The notes beneath the pieces were generated by a model that did no database searches, was not told the DNA's origin, and worked only from the letters and a program-made list of their open reading frames with translations. Of a DNA stretch of 12,149 nucleotides, positions 1 to 12,149 are shown one piece after another (positions within the stretch are counted from its first letter, which is position 1; each line of letters starts with the position of its first letter). The DNA lies in IMG/VR virus record IMGVR_UViG_2737471817_000011, positions 1 to 12,149 of that record. One strand, given 5' to 3'. The translations under genes and the position numbers were made by a program. Source of the stretch: a virus. Its lineage: Duplodnaviria; Heunggongvirae; Uroviricota; Caudoviricetes.

Positions 1-1284
1 TTACTTCTTCGCCTCTGCAACCACTTTACTACCCACGCCGCGGTTATTGTATTCCCACATGCGGTTGTAGTTAGTGTCATTCAGATTGCGCTGTATTTCG
101 TCGTTATCATCTACGCTGCCGGTATTACCCGCAAACGGACGATTAGAGATCACCGCATCGGCCCACGGTTTAGCCGTGTTAAAACCTTCGTTGATGGCGC
201 TATCACGGATCACCACCTGACCGTTGGTATTGGCATCAACATCCAGCGAGCGGCCCAGTTGCGCCACACCATCACCGAAAGCATTGAAACGGCTGTTTAC
301 GGCGAGGAAACCGTAGTAAATGTTGGACAGCGTAGCCGGTGCAAACACATACGCTTCTTGCTGAGTACGTGAGTTCACCACGCGGAATTCGGTGTTATCG
401 AACACCACTGCGCCGCGACCAGAAACGATATCCACATCCCCTTCAATGTAGCTGTTGGTCACCAGCGTACGCGGCTGACGGTTGGTTTCCAGACGGTTCT
501 GCACACCGCTGTTGGTGACAAAGAAGGTGTTCTGACGACCGAGAATGTTAACGTTGTTAATCTGTACCAGGTCACCATCAGTACGCAGTGCCACCGCCGG
601 ATGGTTACCTGCATCTACGCTATCGCCCAGCGTGTTTTCGATGGTCAGATTTTGCAGTTGCAGGCCATTGTTTTGTGACCAGAAGACCGCAGAGCAGAGA
701 ACACCGATACTGTCGCTGCGTTTGCTCTGGCAGCTATCGTACATATACCACGCTGGTTTACCTGGCATATATTTGCCGCGCGGGTTGACGTCGTGACGCC
801 AGTCGGCAGGGCTCATGCCACCATCAAGGGAAAGCCCAATCTTCACATCAATCGGTTTTTCACCTGTACCGTACAGAGTAATTCCACCCGGAGCGGCAGG
901 GACATATACCGTTCCCTGATACTCACCAGGCATCACGGCAATATACTGGCGCTTGTTGGTACGCTTGATAATTGCCGCATCTACCGCCGCCTGAATCGTG
1001 GTATGCGTTACACCTTGAGTGCCCGCCGGGCCGACAACAAAGTCAGGTTGCGCAGGCAGGGTAATCGGGGAAGGATTCCACGCTGCAGCACCTGGTGTCA
1101 GGGATGCAAAATAGTGTTGAGCATCGAAATTCTGCGCTTCTTTTGCCGACAGAATCGGGCGAGAAGAGGTACCAGGCGCGGTTTGATCAGAAGGACGTTG
1201 ATCGGGCGGGGTTGAGCTACAGGCGGTCAGCGTCACGCCAAAAGCCAATGCCAGCGCCAGACGGGAAACTGAAAATGTGTTCAC
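1..1284 (-). CDS. ybhC: Outer-membrane lipoprotein YbhC (pectinesterase-fold family; putative acyl-CoA thioesterase)
   Basis: 427-aa ORF ending at window base 1. N-terminus MNTFSVSRLALALAFGVTLTAC has a signal peptide and lipobox (LTAC). Recognised from memory as the gene flanking attB-lambda on the gal side in E. coli K-12. Confidence 0.88.
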   Translation of the reverse strand: MNTFSVSRLALALAFGVTLTACSSTPPDQRPSDQTAPGTSSRPILSAKEAQNFDAQHYFASLTPGAAAWNPSPITLPAQPDFVVGPAGTQGVTHTTIQAAVDAAIIKRTNKRQYIAVMPGEYQGTVYVPAAPGGITLYGTGEKPIDVKIGLSLDGGMSPADWRHDVNPRGKYMPGKPAWYMYDSCQSKRSDSIGVLCSAVFWSQNNGLQLQNLTIENTLGDSVDAGNHPAVALRTDGDLVQINNVNILGRQNTFFVTNSGVQNRLETNRQPRTLVTNSYIEGDVDIVSGRGAVVFDNTEFRVVNSRTQQEAYVFAPATLSNIYYGFLAVNSRFNAFGDGVAQLGRSLDVDANTNGQVVIRDSAINEGFNTAKPWADAVISNRPFAGNTGSVDDNDEIQRNLNDTNYNRMWEYNNRGVGSKVVAEAKK

Positions 1285-1330
1285 AGGTTGCTCCGGGCTA
1301 TGAAATAGAAAAATGAATCCGTTGAAGCCT

Positions 1331-1345
1331 GCTTTTTTATACTAA
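1331..1345. other. attL: attL core: 15-bp lambda-type overlap sequence GCTTTTTTATACTAA
   Basis: Exact 15-mer read at 1331-1345. Left flank (ccgttgaagcct) is bacterial B-arm-like; right flank (gttggcattataaaaaagcattgcttatcaatttgttgcaacgaacaggtcactatcagtcaaaat) matches the lambda P' arm as I recall it. Confidence 0.9.
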
Positions 1346-1426
1346 GTTGGCATTATAAAAAAGCATTGCTTATCAATTTGTTGCAACGAACAGGTCACTA
1401 TCAGTCAAAATAAAATCATTATTTGA
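1346..1426. promoter_or_regulatory. P' arm of attL with tandem Int arm-type sites (aggtcactat / cagtcaaaat, 1392-1411)
   Basis: Arm-type consensus-like decamers read directly at 1392-1401 and 1402-1411, followed by AT-rich aaaatcattatttg. The 3' end of int overlaps this arm, as in lambda. Confidence 0.7.
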
Positions 1427-2489
1427 TTTCAATTTTGTCCCACTCCCTGCCTCTGTCATCACGATACTGTGATGCCATGGTGTCCGACTTATGCCCGAGA
1501 AGATGTTGAGCAAACTTATCGCTTATCTGCTTCTCATAGAGTCTTGCAGACAAACTGCGCAACTCGTGAAAGGTAGGCGGATCCCCTTCGAAGGAAAGAC
1601 CTGATGCTTTTCGTGCGCGCATAAAATACCTTGATACTGTGCCGGATGAAAGCGGTTCACGACGAGTAGATGCAATTATGGTTTCTCCGCCAAGAATCTC
1701 TTTGCATTTATCAAGTGTTTCCTTCATTGATATCCCGAGAGCATCAACATGCAATGTTGTAGGTATGGCAATTTTTACGCCCGTTTTGCTTTGCTCGACA
1801 TAAAGATATCCATCTACGATATCAGACCACTTCATTTCGCATAAATCACCAACTCGTTGCCCGGTAACAACAGCCAGTTCCATTGCAAGTCTGAGCCAAC
1901 ATGGTGATGATTCTGCTGCTTGATAAATTTTCAGGTATTCGTCAGCTGTAAGTCTTGATCTCCTTACCTCTGATTTTGCTGCGCGAGTGGCAGCGACCGG
2001 GTTTGTTGTTATATGGCCTTCAGCTATAGCCTCTCGGAATGCATCGCTCAGTGTTGATCTGATTAACTTGGCTGATGCCGCCTTGCCCTCGTCAATGTAT
2101 CCATTGAGCATTGCCGCAATTTCTTTTGTGGTGATGTCTTCAAGTGGAGCATCAGGCAGACCCCTCCTTATTGCTTTAATTTTGCTCATGTAATTTATGA
2201 GTGTCTTCTGCTTGATTCCTCTGCTGGCGAGTATTTTTTCGTAGCGATCAAGCCATGAATGTAACGTAACAGAATTATCACTGTTGATTCTTGCTGTCAG
2301 AGGCTTGTGTTTGTGTCCTGAGAATAACTCAATGTTTGCCTGTATTGCTTCAGTAATTGCTATCCTCCTGTCTCTGCCTAATCCGAACTCTTTACCCGTC
2401 CTTGGGTCCCTGTAGCAGTAATATCCATTGTTTCTTAAATAAAGGTTAGGGGGTAAATCCCGGCGCTCATGACTTCGCCTTCTTCCCAT
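1419..2489 (-). CDS. int: Lambda-type tyrosine integrase Int
   Basis: 356-aa ORF starting MGRRRSHERRDLPPNLY and ending EWDKIEIK, near-identical to lambda Int as I recall it. Catalytic region contains HELRSL and GHKSDTMASQY (tyrosine recombinase R/H/Y signature). Sits next to the att core. Confidence 0.96.
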   Translation of the reverse strand: MGRRRSHERRDLPPNLYLRNNGYYCYRDPRTGKEFGLGRDRRIAITEAIQANIELFSGHKHKPLTARINSDNSVTLHSWLDRYEKILASRGIKQKTLINYMSKIKAIRRGLPDAPLEDITTKEIAAMLNGYIDEGKAASAKLIRSTLSDAFREAIAEGHITTNPVAATRAAKSEVRRSRLTADEYLKIYQAAESSPCWLRLAMELAVVTGQRVGDLCEMKWSDIVDGYLYVEQSKTGVKIAIPTTLHVDALGISMKETLDKCKEILGGETIIASTRREPLSSGTVSRYFMRARKASGLSFEGDPPTFHELRSLSARLYEKQISDKFAQHLLGHKSDTMASQYRDDRGREWDKIEIK

Positions 2490-2685
2490 TTCTGATCCTC
2501 TTCAAAAGGCTACCTGTTACTGGTCGATTTAAGTCAACCTTTACCGCTGATTCGTGGAACAGATACTCTCTTCCATCCTTAACCGGAGGAGGGAATATCC
2601 TGCATTCGCGCACCCATCGACGAACTGTTTCAAGGCTTCTTGGGCGTCGCTGGCGAGCGTTCCACTCCTGAAGTGTCAAGTACAT
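2467..2685 (-). CDS. xis: Excisionase Xis (lambda-type)
   Basis: 72-aa ORF MYLTLQEWNARQRRPRSLETVRRWVRECRIFPPPVKDGREYLFHESAVKVDL, matching lambda Xis from memory. Its 3' end overlaps the int start by 23 bp, as in lambda. Confidence 0.94.
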   Translation of the reverse strand: MYLTLQEWNARQRRPRSLETVRRWVRECRIFPPPVKDGREYLFHESAVKVDLNRPVTGSLLKRIRNGKKAKS

Positions 2686-2710
2686 CGCAAAGTCTCCGCA
2701 ATTACACGCA

Positions 2711-2736
2711 AGAAAAAACCGCCATCAGGCGGTTTG
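2711..2736 (-). terminator. Candidate intrinsic terminator between the 55-aa ORF and xis (GC stem ccgcc/ggcgg followed by a U-run on the minus-strand transcript)
   Basis: Stem aaaccgcc (2716-2723) / ggcggttt (2728-2735) with loop atca; minus-strand RNA continues with a U-tract (plus-strand A-run 2713-2718). The stop codon of the 55-aa ORF (2725-2727) sits in the loop. Confidence 0.5.
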
Positions 2737-2892
2737 GTGTTCTTTCAGTTCTTCAACTCGAATATTGGTTACGTCTGCATGCGCTATCTGCGCCCATATC
2801 ATCCAGTGGTCATAGCAGTCGTTGATGTCCTCTGCTTCGATAACTCTGTTGAATGGCTCTCCATTCCATTCACCTGTGACTCGGAAGTGCAT
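2725..2892 (-). CDS. Small hypothetical protein (55 aa), positional equivalent of the 55-aa ORF just upstream of xis in lambda
   Basis: Not in the supplied ORF track (below its length cutoff); read by hand from the minus strand: MHFRVTGEWNGEPFNRVIEAEDINDCYDHWMIWAQIAHADVTNIRVEELKEHQTA. GGAGA Shine-Dalgarno 6 nt upstream of the ATG. Same spacing from xis as lambda's 55-aa ORF, by my memory of lambda coordinates. Confidence 0.5.
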   Translation of the reverse strand: MHFRVTGEWNGEPFNRVIEAEDINDCYDHWMIWAQIAHADVTNIRVEELKEHQTA

Positions 2893-2972
2893 TTATCATC
2901 TCCATAAAACAAAACTCGCCGTAGCGAGTTCAGATAAAAGAAATCCATCAATTGGTTAGGGTATTTGTAATT

Positions 2973-3158
2973 CTACGAATTATGTTGTTTTTTAGCTTCA
3001 GCTTTCCATTCATCAAAGGCAGTGTCTTTGTTCATGGTGCTGATATTGATCTTACGGTCAATATCATATACACGCCACTCACCGTTAGGCCTCTCTTCGC
3101 ATCTAACTAAGTATGAATTGCCATTAATATCTATGCGTCTGTCTATTTGCATGAACAT
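2973..3158 (-). CDS. Hypothetical small protein (61 aa from the first ATG; track ORF uses a TTG two codons upstream at 3164)
   Basis: ORF MFMQIDRRIDINGNSYLVRCEERPNGEWRVYDIDRKINISTMNKDTAFDEWKAEAKKQHNS. I recognise no family. It is flanked by AT-rich gaps on both sides, unlike the overlapping genes upstream. Confidence 0.35.
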   Translation of the reverse strand: MFMQIDRRIDINGNSYLVRCEERPNGEWRVYDIDRKINISTMNKDTAFDEWKAEAKKQHNS

Positions 3159-3275
3159 TTTCAATTTTCGAATCCTCTTTAATATGCATTTTTTGCTATT
3201 TCAGTAGTTTACTATTGATGAGGCGTTATTATACACACTTCATTAATGCAAGCATCTTTATGCTATGCTACTAAT

Positions 3276-3557
3276 TTAGCCATCAATATTCACCTTTATC
3301 GCGTACACCTTTACCGGTTTATCGCCGAAGTGCGGATGTGTGATTGTCTTGATTTCATAGCCGCCATACGGAACGTCAATTCTGCGGCTGGAATCGTCGC
3401 GCTTCGGATATCCCTTTGTGATAATCAGGCTGTCATACTCCCGTAACATAATTCGCTTATTCCAATAGTCATTACACAGGCGATACTCTTCCGTTTTCTC
3501 TCCTCGAATCATGGCATCGAAGTATTCACCTTTGACGGCAAGTTGTAGGTTAGCCAC
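3276..3557 (-). CDS. 93-aa phage accessory protein; N-terminal motif resembles PUA-like ASCH/DUF3850 beta-barrel proteins; positional analogue of lambda ea8.5
   Basis: ORF MANLQLAVKGEYFDAMIRGEKTEEYRLCNDYWNKR... The pattern hydrophobic-x-(E/P)YF-x-A-x-x-x-G-x-KT-x-E-x-R is typical of ASCH/DUF3850 N-termini. Its start overlaps the stop of the upstream Lar-like gene by 8 bp (operon). Confidence 0.5.
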   Translation of the reverse strand: MANLQLAVKGEYFDAMIRGEKTEEYRLCNDYWNKRIMLREYDSLIITKGYPKRDDSSRRIDVPYGGYEIKTITHPHFGDKPVKVYAIKVNIDG

Positions 3558-3852
3558 GGTTAACCTCCTGCGGAGTAGCCTTTACAAGCACTGGTGCAAA
3601 TCCATCTTCATTAAGGTTATGAATATAGACTTCTGTTCTCCTGCGCTCTTCAACGTTTAATATTGTTTCTGGATCATAAACCCATACTTTCATTCGACTA
3701 TTCCATGAAGAAATCGCTTCAGATCTAGTTCGTTTTTCTGGTCCTTGGGCACCACATTTGCATGACACATAGCGCATTTTCCCTCTGATACTGAATGAGT
3801 ATCCGATGTTAAGCACAGTGGAACCACAGAATGGGCAGCGATATAGATTCAT
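3550..3852 (-). CDS. Lar-family zinc-ribbon protein (putative restriction-alleviation / modification-enhancement protein)
   Basis: 100-aa ORF MNLYRCPFCGSTVLNIGYSFSIRGKMRYVSCKCGAQGPEK with a CPFCG...C-x-CG four-cysteine zinc ribbon near the N-terminus, as in Lar (RalR-like) proteins. AGGTGGA Shine-Dalgarno upstream. ATGA start/stop overlap with the upstream 254-aa gene. Confidence 0.6.
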   Translation of the reverse strand: MNLYRCPFCGSTVLNIGYSFSIRGKMRYVSCKCGAQGPEKRTRSEAISSWNSRMKVWVYDPETILNVEERRRTEVYIHNLNEDGFAPVLVKATPQEVNRG

Positions 3853-4610
3853 AAATCATCCACCTTAGGCGCAGCTGAGACAGCAACATTCCAGAACTCA
3901 GAAAACATATTGTATGCACCAGATAGATTGGAAGTGGCATACCCTCCAAGCTCACTTCTAATCTGAACGGCTCTCATCATTTCCGGCGTTAACTCCTTCG
4001 GCACCATAACCCAACCATCCGGAGTTACCGGAGAGTTGCCATTTATATCGAAGTTTGGCTCTGCGTCCTGAACCAGGAGGATGTAACCATTCTTGGCAGT
4101 ATCAAGTTCTAACGCCTCGGTGACGGTGCCGAAATAGCGATTGCCTAAATCAGCATCACAAGTGCTTACATCAATGGAAACTTCCATGCCTTCGATTAAT
4201 TCTGGCAAGTTGTAAGTTTGGCTTACATGTTGGCTACCCTGAAGCATGGCGGCGCGGCAGGCGTTCCAGCCTCTCACCTCTGCAATAGCGGCAACAGCAT
4301 CAACCGCGTACATTTTAAGAGGGTTAGGCATTGGTTTTTCTTCAGGTACTACTGGCACTGGAGGGGCGGCATAAACAGGAATAACGTCCGATTGCTCTTT
4401 ATTGCTTTCATCCGTTAAAGCCCAGAATAATTTTCCAGCCGGATGTTTGAAAATATAAGCAACTGGTTCTGCTTCCAGCGATGCCAGCGCCAACTTGAAC
4501 GCCTGAAGCTCAATGGCACTGTTGGTATCCAGTCCAAACGGTAATTCATCACGATTGGCTTCGTATTCAGCGATAGTTTGCTTCAGCCATTCTTTGGTTA
4601 GTTCAGCCAT
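3849..4610 (-). CDS. Hypothetical 253-aa phage early-left accessory protein (positional analogue of lambda ea22; family not recognised)
   Basis: Track ORF 3849-4661; I place the start at the internal ATG 4608-4610 (MAELTKEWLKQTIAEYEANRDELPFG...), which is preceded by AAGGGG. Acidic, proline-rich linker (PVYAAPPVPVVPEEKPMPNP) between two predicted domains. Translationally coupled to the Lar-like gene. Confidence 0.6.
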   Translation of the reverse strand: MAELTKEWLKQTIAEYEANRDELPFGLDTNSAIELQAFKLALASLEAEPVAYIFKHPAGKLFWALTDESNKEQSDVIPVYAAPPVPVVPEEKPMPNPLKMYAVDAVAAIAEVRGWNACRAAMLQGSQHVSQTYNLPELIEGMEVSIDVSTCDADLGNRYFGTVTEALELDTAKNGYILLVQDAEPNFDINGNSPVTPDGWVMVPKELTPEMMRAVQIRSELGGYATSNLSGAYNMFSEFWNVAVSAAPKVDDL

Positions 4611-4614
4611 ATCC

Positions 4615-4824
4615 CTAATTCCCCTTGGTGCTGACTTTGACGCCAACCTTGCGAATCTCATCGGCGCATCTGTTCACGATACTCCGGTGAAACTCACAAA
4701 AAATTTTCGCCGACTGCGGCCCTAATGGGTGAACATCGTGCGCACGCGGCAGTACAACCTCCCGCGCCTCCATGTCAGCAATCCGCTTGTCTTTGGCTTC
4801 CAGCTCATTCAGCAGCGCCAGCAA
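4615..4824 (-). CDS. Questionable small ORF at the deletion junction (TTG start in track; possible 5'-truncated remnant of an early-left gene)
   Basis: Translation LLNELEAKDKRIADMEAREVVLPRAHDVHPLGPQSAKIFCEFHRSIVNRCADEIRKVGVKVSTKGN. No ATG with a Shine-Dalgarno at its 5' end; an in-frame stop lies only 8 codons upstream. It ends 4 bp before the 254-aa gene start. Confidence 0.25.
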   Translation of the reverse strand: MLALLNELEAKDKRIADMEAREVVLPRAHDVHPLGPQSAKIFCEFHRSIVNRCADEIRKVGVKVSTKGN

Positions 4825-5747
4825 TTCAGCAGATTGATACTGAGATATCTAATCTGCAGAAGCTTGGTAAGGTGGCTGATAACGAGACTATTTCAAAACT
4901 TCAGTCATATCGTGATGAGCTTGTTCGCAATGCTGGTCCTGATGGTCCGGTCAATCTGGATTTGAAGCAATTAAGCGATCTGCGCAGCCAGTTCAGAATG
5001 GACGTGAAGGGTGAGCGACCAGTGTTACCAAACCGTTCCGATGCTGCCATTCAGCGAGTTTACAAGGCGATGACCGACGATATCAATGGTGCCATTGGTC
5101 AGAATCTTGGCAATGATACTCTTCGTAAATATCAGCAGGCCAATGCCGTCTACGCTGACGAAGCGGCGAAACTAAAGAATACCAGGCTGAAGAATGTTCT
5201 CATGAAAGGCGACCTGACTCCGGAAGTTGTCAACAACATGCTATTCAGCAAGAACAAATCGGAAATTAAGACTCTGTATAACTCAGTTGGTCGTGTTGGC
5301 AGGGCGCAAATGCGCAATGGCATCATTGGAAAGGCGATGGAGAAATCAGGTGGTTCCCCTGACCAGTTCCTTCGGCAGCTTAATATCCTGCAAAACCATA
5401 CTGGCATCACATTTAAGGGGCAGGACTCTGCTTATCTGAAAGGATTAAAAAACTACCTGCAATCCACGCAGCAGGCTGCAAAAGCGGCAGTAACAACACC
5501 CACAGGGCAGCAAACTATCCCGTTCATTATTGGGTATGGGACGGCAATGAACCCGGCGACAACTGGCGCAGCAGTAAGCTATGGACTTCTTACGCGCGTC
5601 TATGAGAGCGAGCCATTCAGAAATGCAATGCTCCGAATGGCAAACACCCCGCGCGGATCAACAGCGTTTGAGAAAGCCATGCAGCAGGCACAAAAGGCAA
5701 TTAACGCTATGACGCAGGGGGCTAAGTCTGATGCGTTGTCAGAATAG
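4725..5747 (+). pseudogene. Probable 3' fragment of a P22-like internal virion / DNA-ejection protein gene (gp16-like by position); the first ~35 codons of the track ORF are probably not coding
   Basis: Long + strand ORF ending 90 bp before a convergent mnt-like gene, the position gene 16 occupies relative to mnt in P22. The C-terminal region is Ala/Gln-rich (QQAAKAAVTTPTGQQ...MQQAQKAINAMTQGAK). The N-terminal 4725-4830 is GC-rich, low-complexity and overlaps a minus-strand ORF. Confidence 0.4.
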
Positions 5748-5836
5748 CTTTTCAAACACCAGGAAAGTACAAAAACCAAATATGTAGAATGCAATATTCA
5801 TCATATCTCTTTGCATAAATCCTCCGTAATGGATGG

Positions 5837-6097
5837 TTAGTTGCTGTCTTTTTTATATAGCTCCTTGAGCGTATCAAAGACAATTTTCTTAACCATATCA
5901 GATTGTTGTTCTGCCATACGCTCTGCATCGTCAATGTAAACTGATGCAGAGCTTTGTTTATCCAATGATTCTTCAATCGCTGCAATTATCTCTGAGTTCA
6001 GCGACCTGTTATTCATCTTCGCACGCTGCTTAATTTTCGCGTGGAGTTCATGCGGAAGTCTCAAGTGAAACTGCGCCTCGTCGTATTTGCTGTACAT
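5837..6097 (-). CDS. mnt: Mnt-like ribbon-helix-helix repressor (immI-type)
   Basis: From the internal ATG at 6095-6097 (AAGGA Shine-Dalgarno upstream): MYSKYDEAQFHLRLPHELHAKIKQRAKMNNRSLNSEIIAAIEESL...DAERMAEQQSDMVKKIVFDTLKELYKKDSN. Closely parallels P22 Mnt as I recall it (FNFRMPMEV...GRSMNSELLQIVQDAL...DAERLADEQSELVKKMVFDTLKDLYKK). Confidence 0.8.
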   Translation of the reverse strand: MYSKYDEAQFHLRLPHELHAKIKQRAKMNNRSLNSEIIAAIEESLDKQSSASVYIDDAERMAEQQSDMVKKIVFDTLKELYKKDSN

Positions 6098-6170
6098 CCT
6101 TGATGCCTCACCAGTTGGGTGGAATGGCATCGTAACCTACTGGATAAATACTCAACAGTACCATTTCGGT

Positions 6171-6193
6171 ATGCAATCACATCATGATTGCAT
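6171..6193. promoter_or_regulatory. Perfect 9-bp inverted repeat with 5-bp spacer (ATGCAATCA-catca-TGATTGCAT); candidate operator upstream of mnt
   Basis: Read directly at 6171-6193. Lies in the 131-bp gap between the mnt start (6097) and the HNH gene stop (6229), where an immI-type operator/promoter would be expected. Confidence 0.45.
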
Positions 6194-6228
6194 CATATCA
6201 TTCGTCTGGAGCAATGAAATGTCAGATA

Positions 6229-6729
6229 TCACCTACTCAACAGATGGTCAGCAACCATGTTTGCTGCCTTATAAGCTATAGCAGCTTCATCAATGGTGTT
6301 GAATCTCCCAAGGGTTATGTTTTTACCTGAGACATTTATCTGAGCTTGCCATTGATTTCTGGCTTGACAGAAAGTTACCCCCTTGATCCCAGCATTGCTA
6401 TTTCGAGGTCCGACATTTAATGCATTTACGACTCTGCTGACATCCCTAAGGTTTGAGATTGCGTTATTTCTTCTGTTTCTATCAATGTGGTCAATCTCTT
6501 GTTTGGGCCATTCGCCATATACATACAGCCAGGCAAGTCTATGTGCAAAATATCTTACGCCATCAATATTAATTGCGTTATATCCATAAGAAATTGTGCC
6601 AGCAACTTTCCCAACAGCACCTCTGGCGCTTAATTTCTTTTTCCAAGTGAAAATTCCTGTTTCTTTATTGTAATCGAGAACCTCCATAAGGCGCTCCCGA
6701 GTTACTACCTCGTGACGTCTCTTACTCAT
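6229..6729 (-). CDS. HNH endonuclease with C-terminal AP2-type DNA-binding domain (homing-endonuclease-like)
   Basis: From the ATG at 6727-6729 (GGAG Shine-Dalgarno upstream): [14 protein letters not shown]... HNH_3-type motif [36 protein letters not shown], then AP2-like [43 protein letters not shown]. Confidence 0.8.
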
Positions 6730-6751
6730 TATTTTCTCCGGAATGTTTATT

Positions 6752-8644
6752 ATGCCAGAACAATTATACAACGTTGTTGTTTCACAACCAAGTCAGTTAT
6801 TTACTTTAGCTCGCTCGTTTAAAGCAAATGCCAATGGCAAAATTTATATCGGAAAAATTGACACTGACCCTGTAAATCCTGAAAACCAGATTCAGGTTTA
6901 TGTGGAAAACGAAGACGGCTCTCACGTTCCTGTATCGCAACCAATCATCATTAACGCTGCTGGTTACCCGGTATATAACGGACAGATTTCCAAGTTCGTA
7001 ACCGCGCAAGGCTATTCTATGGCTGTGTACGATGCATACGGCTCTCAGGAGTATTACTTCTCGAGAGTTAAAAATGACACGCGGTCAGTCACATCATTCC
7101 TGAGTAGCAGGGAATTATGGAAGAAGTACTTGAAGGAATTTGGAATCGTTCTAGTTGATGGTAGCTTTGAGGAAGGGGCAACAGTTAGCGCACCAAATCA
7201 GGCTGTATGGTATAAGTTTGATGGAAAGTGCTATGCAAGAGTAACCGGAGATAGCGTTATCGTTGCATCTGGCTCATCGCCAGACTCAGGCTGGACATCT
7301 GACATTGGCTCACGCATTAAAGCGTGGCTCCCTAATACATCACCAAATACAGATGTATCTACGCGTTTGCAGGCATTGCTTACAGTCGGGAAAGGTGAGA
7401 TTAAAATCCCTGACGGGCGCTATACGGTAAACACCGTCCTTATTACTAACTTTAGCGATTCATCATTCCCATCACTGGGGGCTGGCAGTCCACGTTATAA
7501 TTTTAGCGGTTCATCGATTAACAATACTATTTTCACGGTTTCTGATAATTACTTGCTGAATCACACTGGTGGGGTGAGCGGAACTGTAGTTCATGGAACA
7601 AACACTTATATGAGAACCGGTGATTGTCAGATAATTGGAACTGGAGCAACAAGTAGCGGTGGTTTCAAGTTTAGTTTTTGCACATTTATTGAAGTCGAAA
7701 ATATACGTGCAGCATTGCTTGGAATTCCAGTGTATTTTGCAAACTGCATATATAACTATGTGCGAAACATCAGAGTTGATAATTCTCTGTACGGCATATT
7801 TACAGAAAGTTCAGATCCATCATTCCCAACAAATTCAACATTTGTTGATGATTCAACATTTACTTACTGCTCAAGATATGCTGTAGAGGCGACCATTGGT
7901 CTCACCTTTAACATGACCAATTGCAGTATTGAGAAAAATGGTGTACAAGGTGATGTAAATACTGGTGGGATTTATTTAAAGGTTACTGAGCCGTTAAGTG
8001 TTATAAATATCACTGGAACGTATTTTGAAGCAAACAAAGGAAATGCTGACATAACTGTCCTTAACTCTGGCGGCGGCACCATAGTCGTAAATTTAATAGG
8101 TTGCACGTTTAACAGAGGTAACTCAGATGGGGGTTATACATTAACAAACTTCAAATCACTGTCTCATGCAGGGGTTGGTAAGATTATACTAAATCTACAA
8201 GGGTGTCATTTCTTCTCAAATACATCGTGGGGATTTACTCCATCGGCTGATAAACCTTTTATTACACCTGACACATGGCTTACTGTTAATGGTCTGGATA
8301 CATGTACATTCAGTGAAACAACAAGTCTACCAGACACTATTCAATCAAGCTCATCCAGTATTAGCGTCAAGGTTGCTGCGGATGGTACAAAAATCAGCGG
8401 CCCATCCTACATCACAACGTCAAAAACAGGAACTGGAGTTTATTCAGTAACAAGTAATTATCCATTAGGTACATCGCCTGTTGGCAATGATTATTCCGTA
8501 ATGGCTATATCCAACATCGATGGTTTTGTTGTTACAAGCTCGGCAAATCAAAGTGCAACTTCCTTTAATGTAAGAACTAAAAGTTCTTCCGGTTCCGCTG
8601 CAGACACAGCCTTTAGTGTGACAATTACAAGACGAATTGGGTGA
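6752..8644 (+). CDS. Tailspike protein: P22-type N-terminal head-binding domain plus a distinct beta-helix-like receptor-binding domain
   Basis: Residues ~10-105 ([72 protein letters not shown]...AVYDAYGSQ) parallel the P22 gp9 head-binding domain as I recall it. The rest is Ser/Thr/Asn/Gly-rich with repeated N-x-(S/T) and Cys-containing short repeats, typical of right-handed beta-helix depolymerases. Alternative start at 6743. Confidence 0.85.
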
Positions 8645-8649
8645 TTAAG

Positions 8650-8679
8650 GATGGCGCATATGCGCCATCTTTTTATTTA
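8650..8679. terminator. Bidirectional intrinsic terminator between convergent tailspike and gtrC genes
   Basis: Perfect 20-bp palindrome GATGGCGCATATGCGCCATC (8650-8669) followed on the + strand by TTTTTATTTA. The gtrC stop codon (8673-8675) lies in the T-run. Confidence 0.65.
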
Positions 8680-9947
8680 TTGATTACGCAATCATAAAAG
8701 GCTGATACCTGACCTAAATTACCAAAAAACCAATACTCTCTGTTGTTAATATATCTATATGTATATGGCGTTGAGATTCTATTAACTTTAATTCCATTTT
8801 TACACGACCCATTAAACCTTGCAGATTCAATTGTTGATTCTCTTAATGAATCTTGTGCTGAATATGCAACAGCTGCCTTAAGAGCAAGTAATGATGATGG
8901 AACCGACAGTAACACGATGGATAGCAAAATTATTATTGATGCCTTGCTTTGTTGTGATATCACCAAAATAGTGGAGCGAGTTATAACTGCTGTCATTATG
9001 CACCATGAGAACATGAATGCCCTTGCTTCTGTGTATGGTGACATAATCATTGAACCATCAACAAGAACAGCGGCAATAATACAGAGCCATATTTTTACAC
9101 TCGCTTTATTGGTATAAATTAAATATCCAATTGAAATAACGGATATAAACATTAAAAACCATGATGTAGTTACGAAAACAGTGATAACATCAATAATTCT
9201 TGCCGTGATGTAATCAATGCTCATTCCATTGTAATTTAAAGCATGTTGATAAAATTCCTTTCTCCGTACTGTTGATGGAGCTAGAACAATGATAATCCAT
9301 CCTGCCAACACAAAAATCATAGGAATAATGCGCTTTATTGATAGATTATCATTAATAAAACAAAATAATAACATCGTTATAAGTAAAGCAACTGGTACAT
9401 TTTCAAAACTAAGTCCAGCCAAGAGACATGCAAATAAATACACGCAATAATATTTTATTTTTATTTTTTCAATTAAATTGTAATTTATATACACAAGCAA
9501 TACCGATAGCGTTATTACCATCGGTTGCAGGTATCCAGCATTTGCTGTTTTCCAGAAAAAAACCTCAAATCCAGGCCAGAACGAATATATTGCAATAATT
9601 GAAACGCATGTCCCAAACATAGCGTTATTGCTATCATCTGAGAAAATCCTGAAAATAATATAAGATAGGGCCAAAAAAGAAATAATTGATACGACTATAA
9701 AAAATGTTGGCGGCATGCTCAAGTTAAATATTGCAAGTTGCTCACCAAGCCTTGCGTTCCACATTTCAATTTGTCTTGCTGATCTTTCAACTGAATACAT
9801 GATTCTTGTAATCAAGTCGTGATTAATGAATCTTTTGGTTAATGCAAAATCCTCACCAGCCAATGGGAATATTGAGAATGTTATTGCATAAACAGATGTA
9901 AGAAAGCCTGCAACTATGTAGATGCAGCGATTTATGTTATTTACCAC
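8673..9947 (-). CDS. gtrC: GtrC-type serotype-specific O-antigen glucosyltransferase (polytopic membrane protein)
   Basis: 424-aa, strongly hydrophobic ORF with many predicted transmembrane segments, immediately downstream of gtrA-gtrB and overlapping the gtrB stop by 11 bp. GTG start 5 nt after AGGAGG. Very AT-rich (only 11 G/C in 9421-9480). Confidence 0.75.
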
Positions 9948-10863
9948 ATTCCCCTCCTTTCAGAATATAGCGCGGACGATGCTTAACTTCTGTATAAATT
10001 CTGCCAATATATTCACCAAGAACGCCGATTCCAATCAATTGAATGCCACCGAGGAATAGTATTGATACAAGAAGTGACGGATACCCAGGAACGTTGTTGC
10101 CAAACATCAGCTTGTCAATAATCATCCACGAGCCATACATAAATGACAGGCTGGCGACAAAAAGGCCAATGTATGTCCACATTCTCAGTGGTAAGGTAGA
10201 GAAGCTGGTGATTCCTTCGAGTGCCAGATTCCATAACTTCCACCCGTTGAATTTAGAATCACCTGCGACGCGTTCTGCCCTGGCATACTCAACAACATCT
10301 GTGCGTCCGCCAACCCAGCTCAGCACGCCCTTCATAAATAGGTTGCGTTCCGGCATGAGTTTTATGTTCTCCACGACCTCGCGGGACATCAGACGGAAGT
10401 CACCAACGTTTTCTTCAATCTTCGGATGACTAATTTTGTTGTGCAGTTTATAAAACCACTCAGCGGTTTTTCGCTTTAATCTTCCATCAGTAGATCGATC
10501 TGATCGTTTTGCAAGCACCATATCAGCACCTGCCTGCCACTTTTCAATAAGATGAGGAATAACCTCAATCGGGTCTTGCAGGTCAACATCAATTGGAATT
10601 ACAGCATCTCCGGTTGCATGGTCTAACCCTGCAAACAATGCTGGTTCTTTACCAAAGTTTCGTGTAAATGACAGCGGAACAACTAGAGGATCTGAAACGG
10701 ACAGAGCGTTAATGATTGACTCCGTAGCGTCTTTGCTACCATCATTTATAAAAACAATTTCCACTTCATATGGCTTCAACTCTTCGAATTCACGTACCGT
10801 TTTATAAAAAATTGGTATCGCTTCCTCTTCATTGAAGACAGGAACGACCAGAGATATCTTCAT
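9937..10863 (-). CDS. gtrB: GtrB bactoprenol (undecaprenyl-phosphate) glucosyltransferase, GT2 family
   Basis: 308-aa [53 protein letters not shown]... (GT2 N-terminal fold, DxD-type region PIDVDLQDP) with two C-terminal transmembrane helices, the classic GtrB/YfdH architecture. 4-bp ATGA overlap with gtrA. Confidence 0.92.
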
Positions 10864-11222
10864 TTCGCATCCCTAAAGACAATGAACTTTGAATAGACGA
10901 AACCGCACACCAAGCTGATGGCGGAGAAGGTGACAAGAGTGACAATTGGAGGAAGTGCACATCTATCAGCAGCCCATCCAACAGTAGCACTCAGTGTTCC
11001 CATGAACCCGACATATAACATGTAACGCATCGTTGTAGTTGATGCTTTGAATGTGAATTTTGCATTCGCGAAGAAGCTAAAACTCACAGCCACAACAAAA
11101 CCTGCGAAGTTTGCAAGAGCCTGATTTGTATGCGCGGCATAGATACATACACCAAAAACCACCCAGTGTATAAGTGTGTTCAGCACACCAATCGAGGTGT
11201 ACTTTGCAAATAGCTTTAACAT
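10860..11222 (-). CDS. gtrA: GtrA flippase-family small membrane protein
   Basis: 120-aa [62 protein letters not shown]... with four predicted transmembrane helices. Recognised from memory as GtrA (YfdG-like). First gene of the gtr operon, as in P22 and Shigella serotype-converting phages. Confidence 0.92.
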
Positions 11223-11386
11223 TTATTTAATCAATGAGTTCATGAAAGGCATGAAGTCTATCATCCAAGTCTCAATCGATCGATACTTGCTATGGTTGAT
11301 GAGACAAAACTGAGACACACAAAGCTTTGCACTGAATTGCAAGGCTTTGTTCTTCTCTGGAGTGCGACAAGTTTGATGACAAAAAA

Positions 11387-11421
11387 TTAGCGCAAGAGGA
11401 CAAAAAATCACCTTGCGCTAA
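11387..11421. promoter_or_regulatory. sib-like stem-loop (candidate RNase III retroregulation site) on the phage side of the P arm
   Basis: Stem TTAGCGCAAG (11387-11396) / CTTGCGCTAA (11412-11421) around a 15-nt loop. It sits where lambda sib sits relative to attP, on the far side of the P arm from int. Confidence 0.45.
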
Positions 11422-11567
11422 TGCTCTGTTACAGGTCACTAATACTATCTAAGTAGTTGATTCATAGTGACTGCATATGTTGCGTTTTGCAGTATTATAC
11501 AGTCTATTTTTTAAGCCAAATGTATTGTAAGTGATTGCTATTAATGATTTTTGCTGTTTCTGGTTCA
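11422..11567. promoter_or_regulatory. P arm of attR with Int arm-type sites (acaggtcactaat at 11431-11443; catagtgactgcatat at 11460-11475)
   Basis: The distal P arm (ctctgttacaggtcactaatactatctaagtagttgattcatagtgactgcatatgtt) matches lambda from memory. The core-proximal ~60 bp (aagccaaatgtattgtaagtgattgctattaatgatttttgctgtttctggttcagc) appears to differ from lambda. Confidence 0.65.
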
Positions 11568-11582
11568 GCTTTTTTATACTAA
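11568..11582. other. attR: attR core: second copy of the 15-bp core GCTTTTTTATACTAA, followed by bacterial B' arm (cttgagcg)
   Basis: Exact 15-mer at 11568-11582, a direct repeat of 1331-1345. Downstream cttgagcgaaacggg matches the attB right arm as I recall it. Confidence 0.9.
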
Positions 11583-11641
11583 CTTGAGCGAAACGGGAAG
11601 GTAAAAAGACAAAAAGTTGTTTTTAATACCTTTAAGTGATA

Positions 11642-11664
11642 CCAGATGGCATTGCGCCATCTGG
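11642..11664 (-). terminator. Stem-loop immediately downstream of ybhB (possible terminator or mRNA-stabilising hairpin)
   Basis: CCAGATGGC (11642-11650) / GCCATCTGG (11656-11664) with loop ATTGC, 9 bp after the ybhB stop. No clear U-run follows on the minus-strand transcript, so terminator function is uncertain. Confidence 0.3.
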
Positions 11665-11672
11665 CAGAGTGA

Positions 11673-12149
11673 TTAACTAAACATCGCAGTAATCGAGGCG
11701 CTTGCCAGAGAGTGGAAATGAACGTTAAACCCGACCATCGCGCCGCTGGCACCTTCATCGACATCAATACGTTCTATATCCAGCGCGTGAACGGTAAAAA
11801 TGTAGCGATGAGTTTCGCCTTTCGGCGGTGCTGCGCCATCGTACCCGGTTTTACCAAAGTCGGTACGCGTCTGCAAAACGCCGTCTGGCATTGCTACCAG
11901 ACCAGAGCCAAACCCTTGCGGTAATACGCGGGTATCAGCGGGTAAGTTAACAACTACCCAGTGCCACCAGCCGGAGCCGGTTGGCGCATCCGGGTCATAG
12001 CAGGTGACGACAAAACTTTTCGTTCCCGCAGGAACATCATCCCACGCCAGATGCGGTGAAATATTATCGCCATCGTAACCCATGCCGTTAAAGACATGAC
12101 GATGCGGCAACTTATCGCCATCGCGCAGATCATTACTGATGAGTTTCAT
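11673..12149 (-). CDS. ybhB: YbhB, PEBP (phosphatidylethanolamine-binding protein / RKIP) family protein
   Basis: 158-aa ORF MKLISNDLRDGDKLPHRHVFNGMGYDGDNISPHLAWDDVPAGTKSFVVTCYDPDAPTGSGWWHW..., PEBP signature DPDAP...GxxHW. Start codon is the last 3 bases of the window. Known neighbour of attB-lambda on the bio side. Confidence 0.88.
   Translation of the reverse strand: MKLISNDLRDGDKLPHRHVFNGMGYDGDNISPHLAWDDVPAGTKSFVVTCYDPDAPTGSGWWHWVVVNLPADTRVLPQGFGSGLVAMPDGVLQTRTDFGKTGYDGAAPPKGETHRYIFTVHALDIERIDVDEGASGAMVGFNVHFHSLASASITAMFS

Follow-up and report, generated by a model that had tools for sequence, protein, structure and literature searches.

A 10.2-kb island at the lambda attachment site of Escherichia coli is very probably the remnant of a single P22-like prophage

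How does a lambda-type integrase come to lie at one end of an island whose other end carries a P22-type tailspike gene and a set of O-antigen conversion genes? The question is raised by a 12,149-nucleotide stretch of caudoviral DNA (IMG/VR virus record IMGVR_UViG_2737471817_000011, positions 1 to 12,149; hereafter the window, from whose first letter all positions are counted), in which an island of 10.2 kb lies between the E. coli genes ybhC and ybhB. The original prediction treated its two ends as coming from different phage lineages. Our analysis points elsewhere: the island is very probably the remnant of one P22-like temperate podovirus (of the Lederbergvirus or 'Hueyvirus' type) that carried a lambda-type integration cassette and later underwent one deletion.

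The island is bracketed by identical 15-bp copies of the lambda att core, GCTTTTTTATACTAA, which is found twice in the window against 0.01 matches expected by chance. The flanking genes ybhC and ybhB identify the site as the lambda attB locus of E. coli.

1..1284, minus strand: ybhC, the host flank on the gal side of attB (Pfam Pectinesterase; 98.9% identical to ybhC of E. coli EC2)
1331..1345, plus strand: attL core GCTTTTTTATACTAA, an exact repeat of 11568-11582
11568..11582, plus strand: attR core GCTTTTTTATACTAA, an exact repeat of 1331-1345
11673..12149, minus strand: ybhB, the host flank on the bio side of attB (Pfam PBP; annotated ybhB in E. coli records)

The limits first proposed for the element, 1331-11582, fall exactly on the two core copies, and its description as a prophage remnant at lambda attB is borne out by the exact cores, the ybhC and ybhB flanks and the missing middle. 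Since the window has no transfer-RNA gene, integration at such a site is excluded. Contig JUCL01000034.1 of E. coli assembly GCA_000797955.1 agrees with the window at 100% identity; because the assembly is a draft, a chimeric contig made of unrelated prophage pieces has to be considered. However, contigs assembled from sequencing runs SRR2239623 and SRR26665359 are 100% and 99.98% identical to the window, and a 5-kb contig from SRR12721269 spans the window centre, including the deletion junction described below. The same junction is therefore present in the NCBI assembly and in contigs of three sequencing runs, one of which differs by a single gap and a few mismatches, so the structure is real and occurs in several data sets. 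An assembly artefact is exceedingly improbable.

Both ends of the island carry the att arms of lambda. On the left, positions 1331-2946 are 97.5% identical to lambda DNA and the lambda-like cassette stops at about 2946; on the right, the P arm directly abuts gtrA, the gene of the conversion operon nearest to attR.

1346..1418, plus strand: P' arm of a lambda-type attP (read directly; within the 97.5% match to lambda 27724-29339)
1419..2489, minus strand: int, lambda-type tyrosine integrase, full length, 356 amino acids (Pfam Phage_integrase 1.7e-40, Arm-DNA-bind_1 2e-32)
2467..2685, minus strand: xis, excisionase, full length, 72 amino acids (Pfam Exc, E = 4e-41; 71/72 identical to lambda Xis)
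2725..2892, minus strand: open reading frame (ORF) of 55 amino acids, homologue of lambdap35 (phrog_676)
10860..11222, minus strand: gtrA, flippase-type small membrane protein, 120 amino acids (Pfam GtrA_DPMS_TM, PF04138, 3e-13)
11316..11567, plus strand: P arm of a lambda-type attP (89% identical to lambda 27473-27742; aligned with lambda, phage Huey and prophages C41 and L007)

Int has the N-terminal arm-binding domain and the catalytic domain of a tyrosine recombinase, and 352 of its 356 residues are those of lambda Int. The substitutions (I18L, H164P, A245T and I248V) spare all the catalytic positions, which we take from the lambda Int literature to be R212, K235, H308, R311, H333 and Y342. 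The exact protein was found on 452 contigs. The genes xis and int overlap by 23 bp, as in lambda, and conservation with lambda extends to the arm sites P1 and P2 and to the P' arm; the arm-type Int sites of the P' arm, under the names used in the lambda literature, are aggtcactat, cagtcaaaat and aaatcattat. Phage lambda itself (NC_001416, 27473-29339) shares Int, Xis, the 15-bp core, the P' arm, orf55 and the P arm with its hairpin, whereas the remainder of the island is not lambda DNA and the P arm is divergent in its H2 region. The IHF H2 motif (11535-11539) reads TTGCT, with C at 11538, in place of the TTGAT common to lambda, Huey and prophages C41 and L007; judged by the motif, this substitution may weaken recombination or excision. 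The hairpin (11387-11396 / 11412-11421; TTAGCGCAAG ... CTTGCGCTAA, then a minus-strand T run) is conserved with lambda, lies just outside the P arm and is separated from int in the prophage, as in lambda. We take it to be the tI/sib retroregulation region.

A lambda-type P arm abutting gtrA, an arrangement seen in many P22-like prophages, implies that one phage supplied both att halves. Escherichia phage Huey (PQ850609.1), a P22-like temperate phage isolated as virions, has the tailspike region followed by a contiguous attP and then int and xis. Its int/xis DNA shares 98% identity with window 1331-2716, and its P arm 89% with window 11377-11586; unlike the island, Huey is a viable phage with another tailspike and with a UmuD-like gene in place of gtrABC. 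As attP is unbroken in the virion DNA of Huey, the island's ends correspond to the two halves of one P22-like phage attP. The same design is found integrated in E. coli C41 (NZ_CP127252.1, 2141592-2184514), whose prophage occupies the ybhC/ybhB site and has a lambda-type int/xis region (98.3% DNA identity over window 1-2722). It runs from ybhC through int, xis, recT and kil to cI, cro and cII, then through the replication, nin, Q, lysis, terminase, portal, scaffold and P22-type coat genes to gp4, gp10, gp26, gp14, gp7, gp20, gp16, mnt, tailspike, gtrC (DUF6056), gtrB, gtrA, attR and ybhB, ending in the order seen in the island. The window maps onto it as 1-2722, 4806-6233 and the right end. 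In contrast to the island, the C41 prophage is a near-complete phage broken only by IS100, with another tailspike receptor domain and gtrC allele, an additional ORF in the gtr cluster and no HNH cassette.

These relatives bear directly on the reading in which a lambda-like siphovirus prophage and a P22-like podovirus prophage fused, for example by recombination of tandem prophages at attB, so that the ends have separate origins. Such a fusion would fit the 97.5% identity of the int-xis-orf55 cassette to lambda next to a P22-like right end, as well as the early-left genes, which are found in both phage types. It does not fit the lambda-type P arm at attR, nor Huey virion DNA, in which the same cassette lies beside the tailspike, nor the near-complete single prophages of this design; furthermore, the tandem-prophage route needs extra events where one deletion accounts for everything. 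We regard a fusion as very unlikely, and the proposal of two lineages is not upheld, as Huey and C41 each carry both parts in one phage. A podovirus tailspike and conversion module with lambda integration specificity had also been called unusual. This does not hold either: besides Huey and C41, gtrA is joined to ybhB via this attR in 91 of 5,426 complete E. coli genomes.

The combination is an instance of the known modular swapping of integration cassettes among P22-like phages, and the design is already known. The P22-like group includes integrases with different targets (thrW, argU), as described with the epsilon34 genome (PMC2629481). For the P22-like phage phiHS3, integration upstream of ybhC and excision have been shown experimentally (preprint, bioRxiv 10.64898/2026.05.19.726188). 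Like the inferred parent, phiHS3 is temperate, and the likeness concerns the integration site; it differs in being viable and in its tailspike. According to annotation and the paper, the tailspikes of Huey and phiHS3 have capsule or colanic-acid specificity.

Further relatives extend the match on the right-hand side. Prophages in GCA_012391695.2 (L020) and GCA_033287625.1 (L021) have tailspike-gtrCBA modules 98.9-99.0% identical to that of the island (6800-11350 or beyond), followed by attR and the ybhB flank. They differ in having full-length gp16, gp20, gp7, gp14 and gp26, and at the HNH site, which is empty in L021 and holds another HNH gene in L020. The best whole-window matches are other small remnants of the same kind, such as the one in E. 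coli EC2 (NZ_CP058571.1). It occupies the ybhC/ybhB site with int, xis, early genes, mnt, tailspike and gtrCBA; unlike the island it arose with an IS1-associated deletion, has other alleles of the tailspike and of gtrC (glucosyltransferase domain type) and keeps more early genes. An IS1-truncated remnant at the same site indicates that such remnants recur. Two loci stand apart: L024 and L025 lie next to yfdC and pair a tailspike-gtrCBA module of 99% identity with a P4-type integrase, and their ejection and tail genes are likewise full length. Similarity to these two stops at about window position 11350, a clean exchange boundary of the integration cassette; lambda similarity starts at 11316 and includes a hairpin at 11319-11350.

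What was removed, and how? The two truncated genes meet at a four-base sequence.

4615..4823, minus strand: 3' end, about 69 codons, of an ead/Ea22-like early gene truncated by the deletion (matches early genes of ETEC4091 and Huey)
4820..4823, no strand: deletion junction, AGCA, shared by both parents (alignment of the window, the Huey early gene, and gene 16 of C41 and Gally)
4824..5747, plus strand: 3' part (924 bases) of ejection-protein gene 16, P22 gp16 family (phrog_770 'DNA transfer protein', 332-666 of 668; Pfam Phage_P22_gp16 on the called gene)

In the four-way alignment, the AGCA crossover is embedded in about 19 bp of imperfect similarity. On the left, similarity ends at 4823 for both the Huey early gene and the ead/Ea22-like gene of ETEC4091; the ETEC4091 match to 4464-4823 is 97.5% identical and ends inside its 150-amino-acid ead/Ea22-like gene. 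On the right, similarity to gene 16 starts within 4806-4824 (Gally, 96% from 4815; C41, 95.7% from 4806). There is no insertion sequence or additional att site at the junction. An exact-match scan for the 46-bp junction in one-genome-per-species contigs gave no match, a collection that is uninformative on frequency within E. coli. All surviving genes are full length, bar the two cut here. The deletion also created an open 340-amino-acid chimeric frame (4725-5747), annotated as a gene by some callers; its first approximately 33 codons are antisense to the Ea22-like remnant and are followed by the C-terminal approximately 308 residues of gp16.

With the C41 prophage as a ruler, approximately 30 kb is missing, from the early-left region to the middle of gene 16. 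The losses comprise recombination, immC, replication, nin, Q, lysis, packaging, head and most tail genes. As the immC, replication, lysis, packaging and virion assembly genes are gone, the element is a defective remnant and not a functional phage. Its small size, the pairing of int and xis at one end and the phage attachment site would also suit a satellite resembling the phage-inducible chromosomal islands, one that has a lambda-type integrase and hijacks a helper phage. However, the island ORFs include no primase or replication module, no AlpA-type regulator and no packaging-redirection genes; instead there are truncated helper-type genes with a clear deletion junction. We give a satellite next to no credence.

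In the single-phage history that we favour, a parent phage whose integration cassette (tI/sib, attP, int, xis and orf55) was of lambda type would have integrated by Int recombination at lambda attB between ybhC and ybhB, generating attL (1331-1345) and attR (11568-11582). A later, single illegitimate deletion of roughly 30 kb would then have joined the interior of the ead/Ea22-like gene to the interior of gene 16 at AGCA. Copies of the remnant in several assemblies are identical or 99.98% identical, which is consistent with a recent event in one lineage.

Between the lambda-like cassette and the junction, about 1.9 kb of additional early-left genes is kept (2973-4823; five ORFs, the last being the ead/Ea22-like remnant above).

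2973..3164, minus strand: early-left ORF of 63 amino acids (phrog_16329, E = 8.5e-49)
3276..3557, minus strand: early-left ORF of 93 amino acids, an ASCH-domain protein in relatives (phrog_625; 98% DNA identity to the 'ASCH domain' gene of HF4s; ASCH in ETEC4091)
3550..3852, minus strand: Lar-like restriction-alleviation protein, 100 amino acids (Pfam Lar_restr_allev, E = 1e-8; phrog_599)
3849..4661, minus strand: DUF551/Ea22-type ORF, 270 amino acids from the first ATG (phrog_60, phrog_5117 and others; partial matches to the DUF551 genes of C41 and ETEC4091)

Gene callers start the DUF551/Ea22-type ORF at 4610, giving 253 amino acids. The early-left genes past 2946 are not those of lambda and match the P22-like phages HF4s (98%, 3286-3558) and Gally. 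The description of the left end as essentially lambda, given for the P' arm, int, xis and the 55-amino-acid ORF, stands; beyond 2946 the matches are P22-like. In the same way, the statement that everything between the ends had been deleted is right about the missing middle and wrong about the early-left genes at 2973-4823, which persist. Two loci, L006 and L014, appeared to differ from the window (no xis, a short Lar); decay was rejected as the explanation, because their DNA is 100% and 99.98% identical to the window and the differences are an effect of gene calling.

Several points weigh against descent from one such parent, or limit how far the present data carry it. A collinear counterpart, the test set against the original prediction, exists for the architecture and, at 99% identity, for the right-hand module; no single record, however, covers at least 80% of the window, so that the exact parent was not found over its whole length. 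The L020 and L021 loci are limited to 10-kb flanks, which puts their int ends outside the view. Early-left genes are common to all lambdoid phages and are no stand-alone proof of a podovirus left arm. Finally, a scan of the window for consensus promoters returned 18 sites where 25 are expected by chance; as the count is below chance, the scan supports no claim of expression.

The right end has the gene order of P22, as predicted: the gene-16 fragment, mnt, tailspike, gtrCBA and the lambda-like P arm are all present. From gp16 to attR this order is collinear with C41, HF4s, L020 and L021.

5837..6130, minus strand: mnt, Arc/Mnt ribbon-helix-helix repressor (Pfam Arc 1e-14, Repressor_Mnt 3e-14)
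6752..8644, plus strand: tailspike, 630 amino acids, with a P22/Sf6-type head-binding domain and a rare receptor-binding domain (Pfam Head_binding, E = 3e-55)

Among the immI genes mnt alone remains, and arc and ant are absent from the island. The tailspike matches the Sf6 gp14 and P22 tailspikes in the PDB over residues 4-107, and 9occ_G over residues 214-627. The exact protein (P0043) was found on 5-7 contigs. Its receptor part and gtrC (7060-9960) had no match in a blastn search with 'distant' settings of 50,697 phage records. In megablast against the 5,426 complete E. coli genomes, matches ended at about 7060, leaving the receptor part and gtrC (7060-9947) with no DNA match there; the relatives were found through protein and contig look-ups. 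Receptor-domain relatives with 62-90% identity occur behind another N-terminal adaptor (PF18668) in Hafnia and other hosts, among them P0045 (90%) and, in Hafnia paralvei, P0048 (72%). Only the alleles of the receptor part and of gtrC are uncommon, and re-use of receptor domains is normal for tailspikes. No role in the remnant is evident for the tailspike or for mnt. We infer that both, like the HNH gene and the gene-16 fragment, are passengers of the recent deletion and not selected functions.

The HNH gene lies between mnt and the tailspike and was missing from the original listing.

6219..6233, plus strand: relic of the ancestral tailspike start, ATGTCAGATATCACC (ATG TCA GAT ATC ACC), equal to the first five tailspike codons in the empty-site loci C41 and L021
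6229..6729, minus strand: HNH-AP2 endonuclease gene, 166 amino acids (Pfam HNH_3 2.5e-16 and AP2; phrog_99)

The cassette (6234-6799) interrupts the ancestral tailspike gene precisely behind its fifth codon and also provides the new 5' end of that gene, with its ATG at 6752. The tailspike start of Sf101 matches window 6200-6233 at 100%. The site is empty in C41, L021, L024, L026, L028 and L029, and occupied in the window, in phage vB_EcoP_Kapi1 (MT813197.1) and in only 15 of the 5,426 complete E. coli genomes, with cassette copies 98.7-99.6% identical. Kapi1, a viable phage, carries the same cassette (98.7% identical) just upstream of its tailspike gene; unlike the island it is a complete phage that includes arc and ant; its integration site is argW, and its tailspike bears another receptor domain. 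The Kapi1 paper does not discuss the HNH gene. A small cassette that combines an HNH nuclease with a DNA-binding domain and is present or absent at a fixed site has the hallmarks of a free-standing HNH cassette. L020 (14065-14711) carries a different HNH gene, of 169 amino acids and 42% identical over 92 amino acids, at the same insertion nucleotide, and the two HNH genes end at the same stop codon within the relic. With two different HNH genes at one nucleotide, the position looks like a recurrent homing target, and codon 5 of the tailspike gene resembles a homing hot spot, homing itself being putative on this sequence comparison. Two unrelated HNH cassettes at a single tailspike nucleotide would be a neat system in which to study the homing endonucleases of temperate phages.

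What could the island still do? The genes most likely to matter to the host are those of the gtr operon, in which gtrA, gtrB and gtrC are co-oriented, overlapping ORFs forming a three-gene GtrABC operon.

8647..8672, no strand: GC-rich, terminator-like hairpin between the convergent tailspike and gtrC genes (terminator scan: 11-bp stem, then a T run)
8673..9947, minus strand: gtrC, specificity-determining membrane glucosyltransferase, DUF6056/GT_STM0557_N, 424 amino acids (Pfam PF19528, E = 3e-27)
9937..10863, minus strand: gtrB, bactoprenol glucosyltransferase, GT2, 308 amino acids (Pfam Glycos_transf_2, PF00535, 8e-31; named 'bactoprenol glucosyl transferase' in source records)

An operon of the gtrABC type is normally a conversion operon expressed from the prophage. 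GtrB would load glucose on undecaprenyl phosphate, GtrA would flip it across the membrane and GtrC would transfer it to the O unit. By analogy, gtrABC probably still glucosylates the O-antigen of the host. The gtrC gene has a GC content of 30-36% and its protein falls in a cluster of only 12 members; the strain probably carries a rare O-antigen modification, set by this gtrC allele, paired with a rare tailspike specificity. Despite intact int, xis and both att sites, self-induced excision is unlikely owing to the loss of pL, N and cII (and with it cII-dependent activation of pI), and the element probably has no induction of excision of its own. Excision would be possible only with a lambda-att phage supplying Int and Xis, or transcription, in trans.

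Was the island then kept by selection? A conversion locus in which gtrABC, perhaps with the tailspike, is retained for host benefit (serotype change or phage exclusion), and which could be mobilised in trans by the Int and Xis of a lambda-att phage, would account for the intact state of gtrA, gtrB, gtrC, tailspike, int, xis and both att sites, and for similar small gtr and tailspike remnants that arose at this site by other routes (IS1 in EC2). Against this, copies 99.98-100% identical mean that intactness may merely reflect a young deletion; the H2 IHF motif is substituted, and pL, N and cII are absent. We consider selective retention doubtful. We think it unlikely, too, that the following broader picture holds: an O-antigen conversion locus that has become stable, whose tailspike receptor domain and gtrC match each other in their rare specificities, and which could still be excised and moved with Int and Xis from a lambda-att phage, and, separately, an HNH cassette marking a homing hot spot at tailspike codon 5 that would drive exchange of the head-binding domain and hence of the tailspike. 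For a defective remnant of one P22-like prophage, the value of the locus lies mainly in its correct annotation, as a case of lambdoid prophage decay to a small island that keeps lysogenic-conversion genes; it also documents a well-known process, the swapping of integration cassettes between P22-like phages. Phase variation of the Dam/OxyR kind known from Salmonella gtr operons was considered as well, and the region upstream of gtrA has one GATC only.

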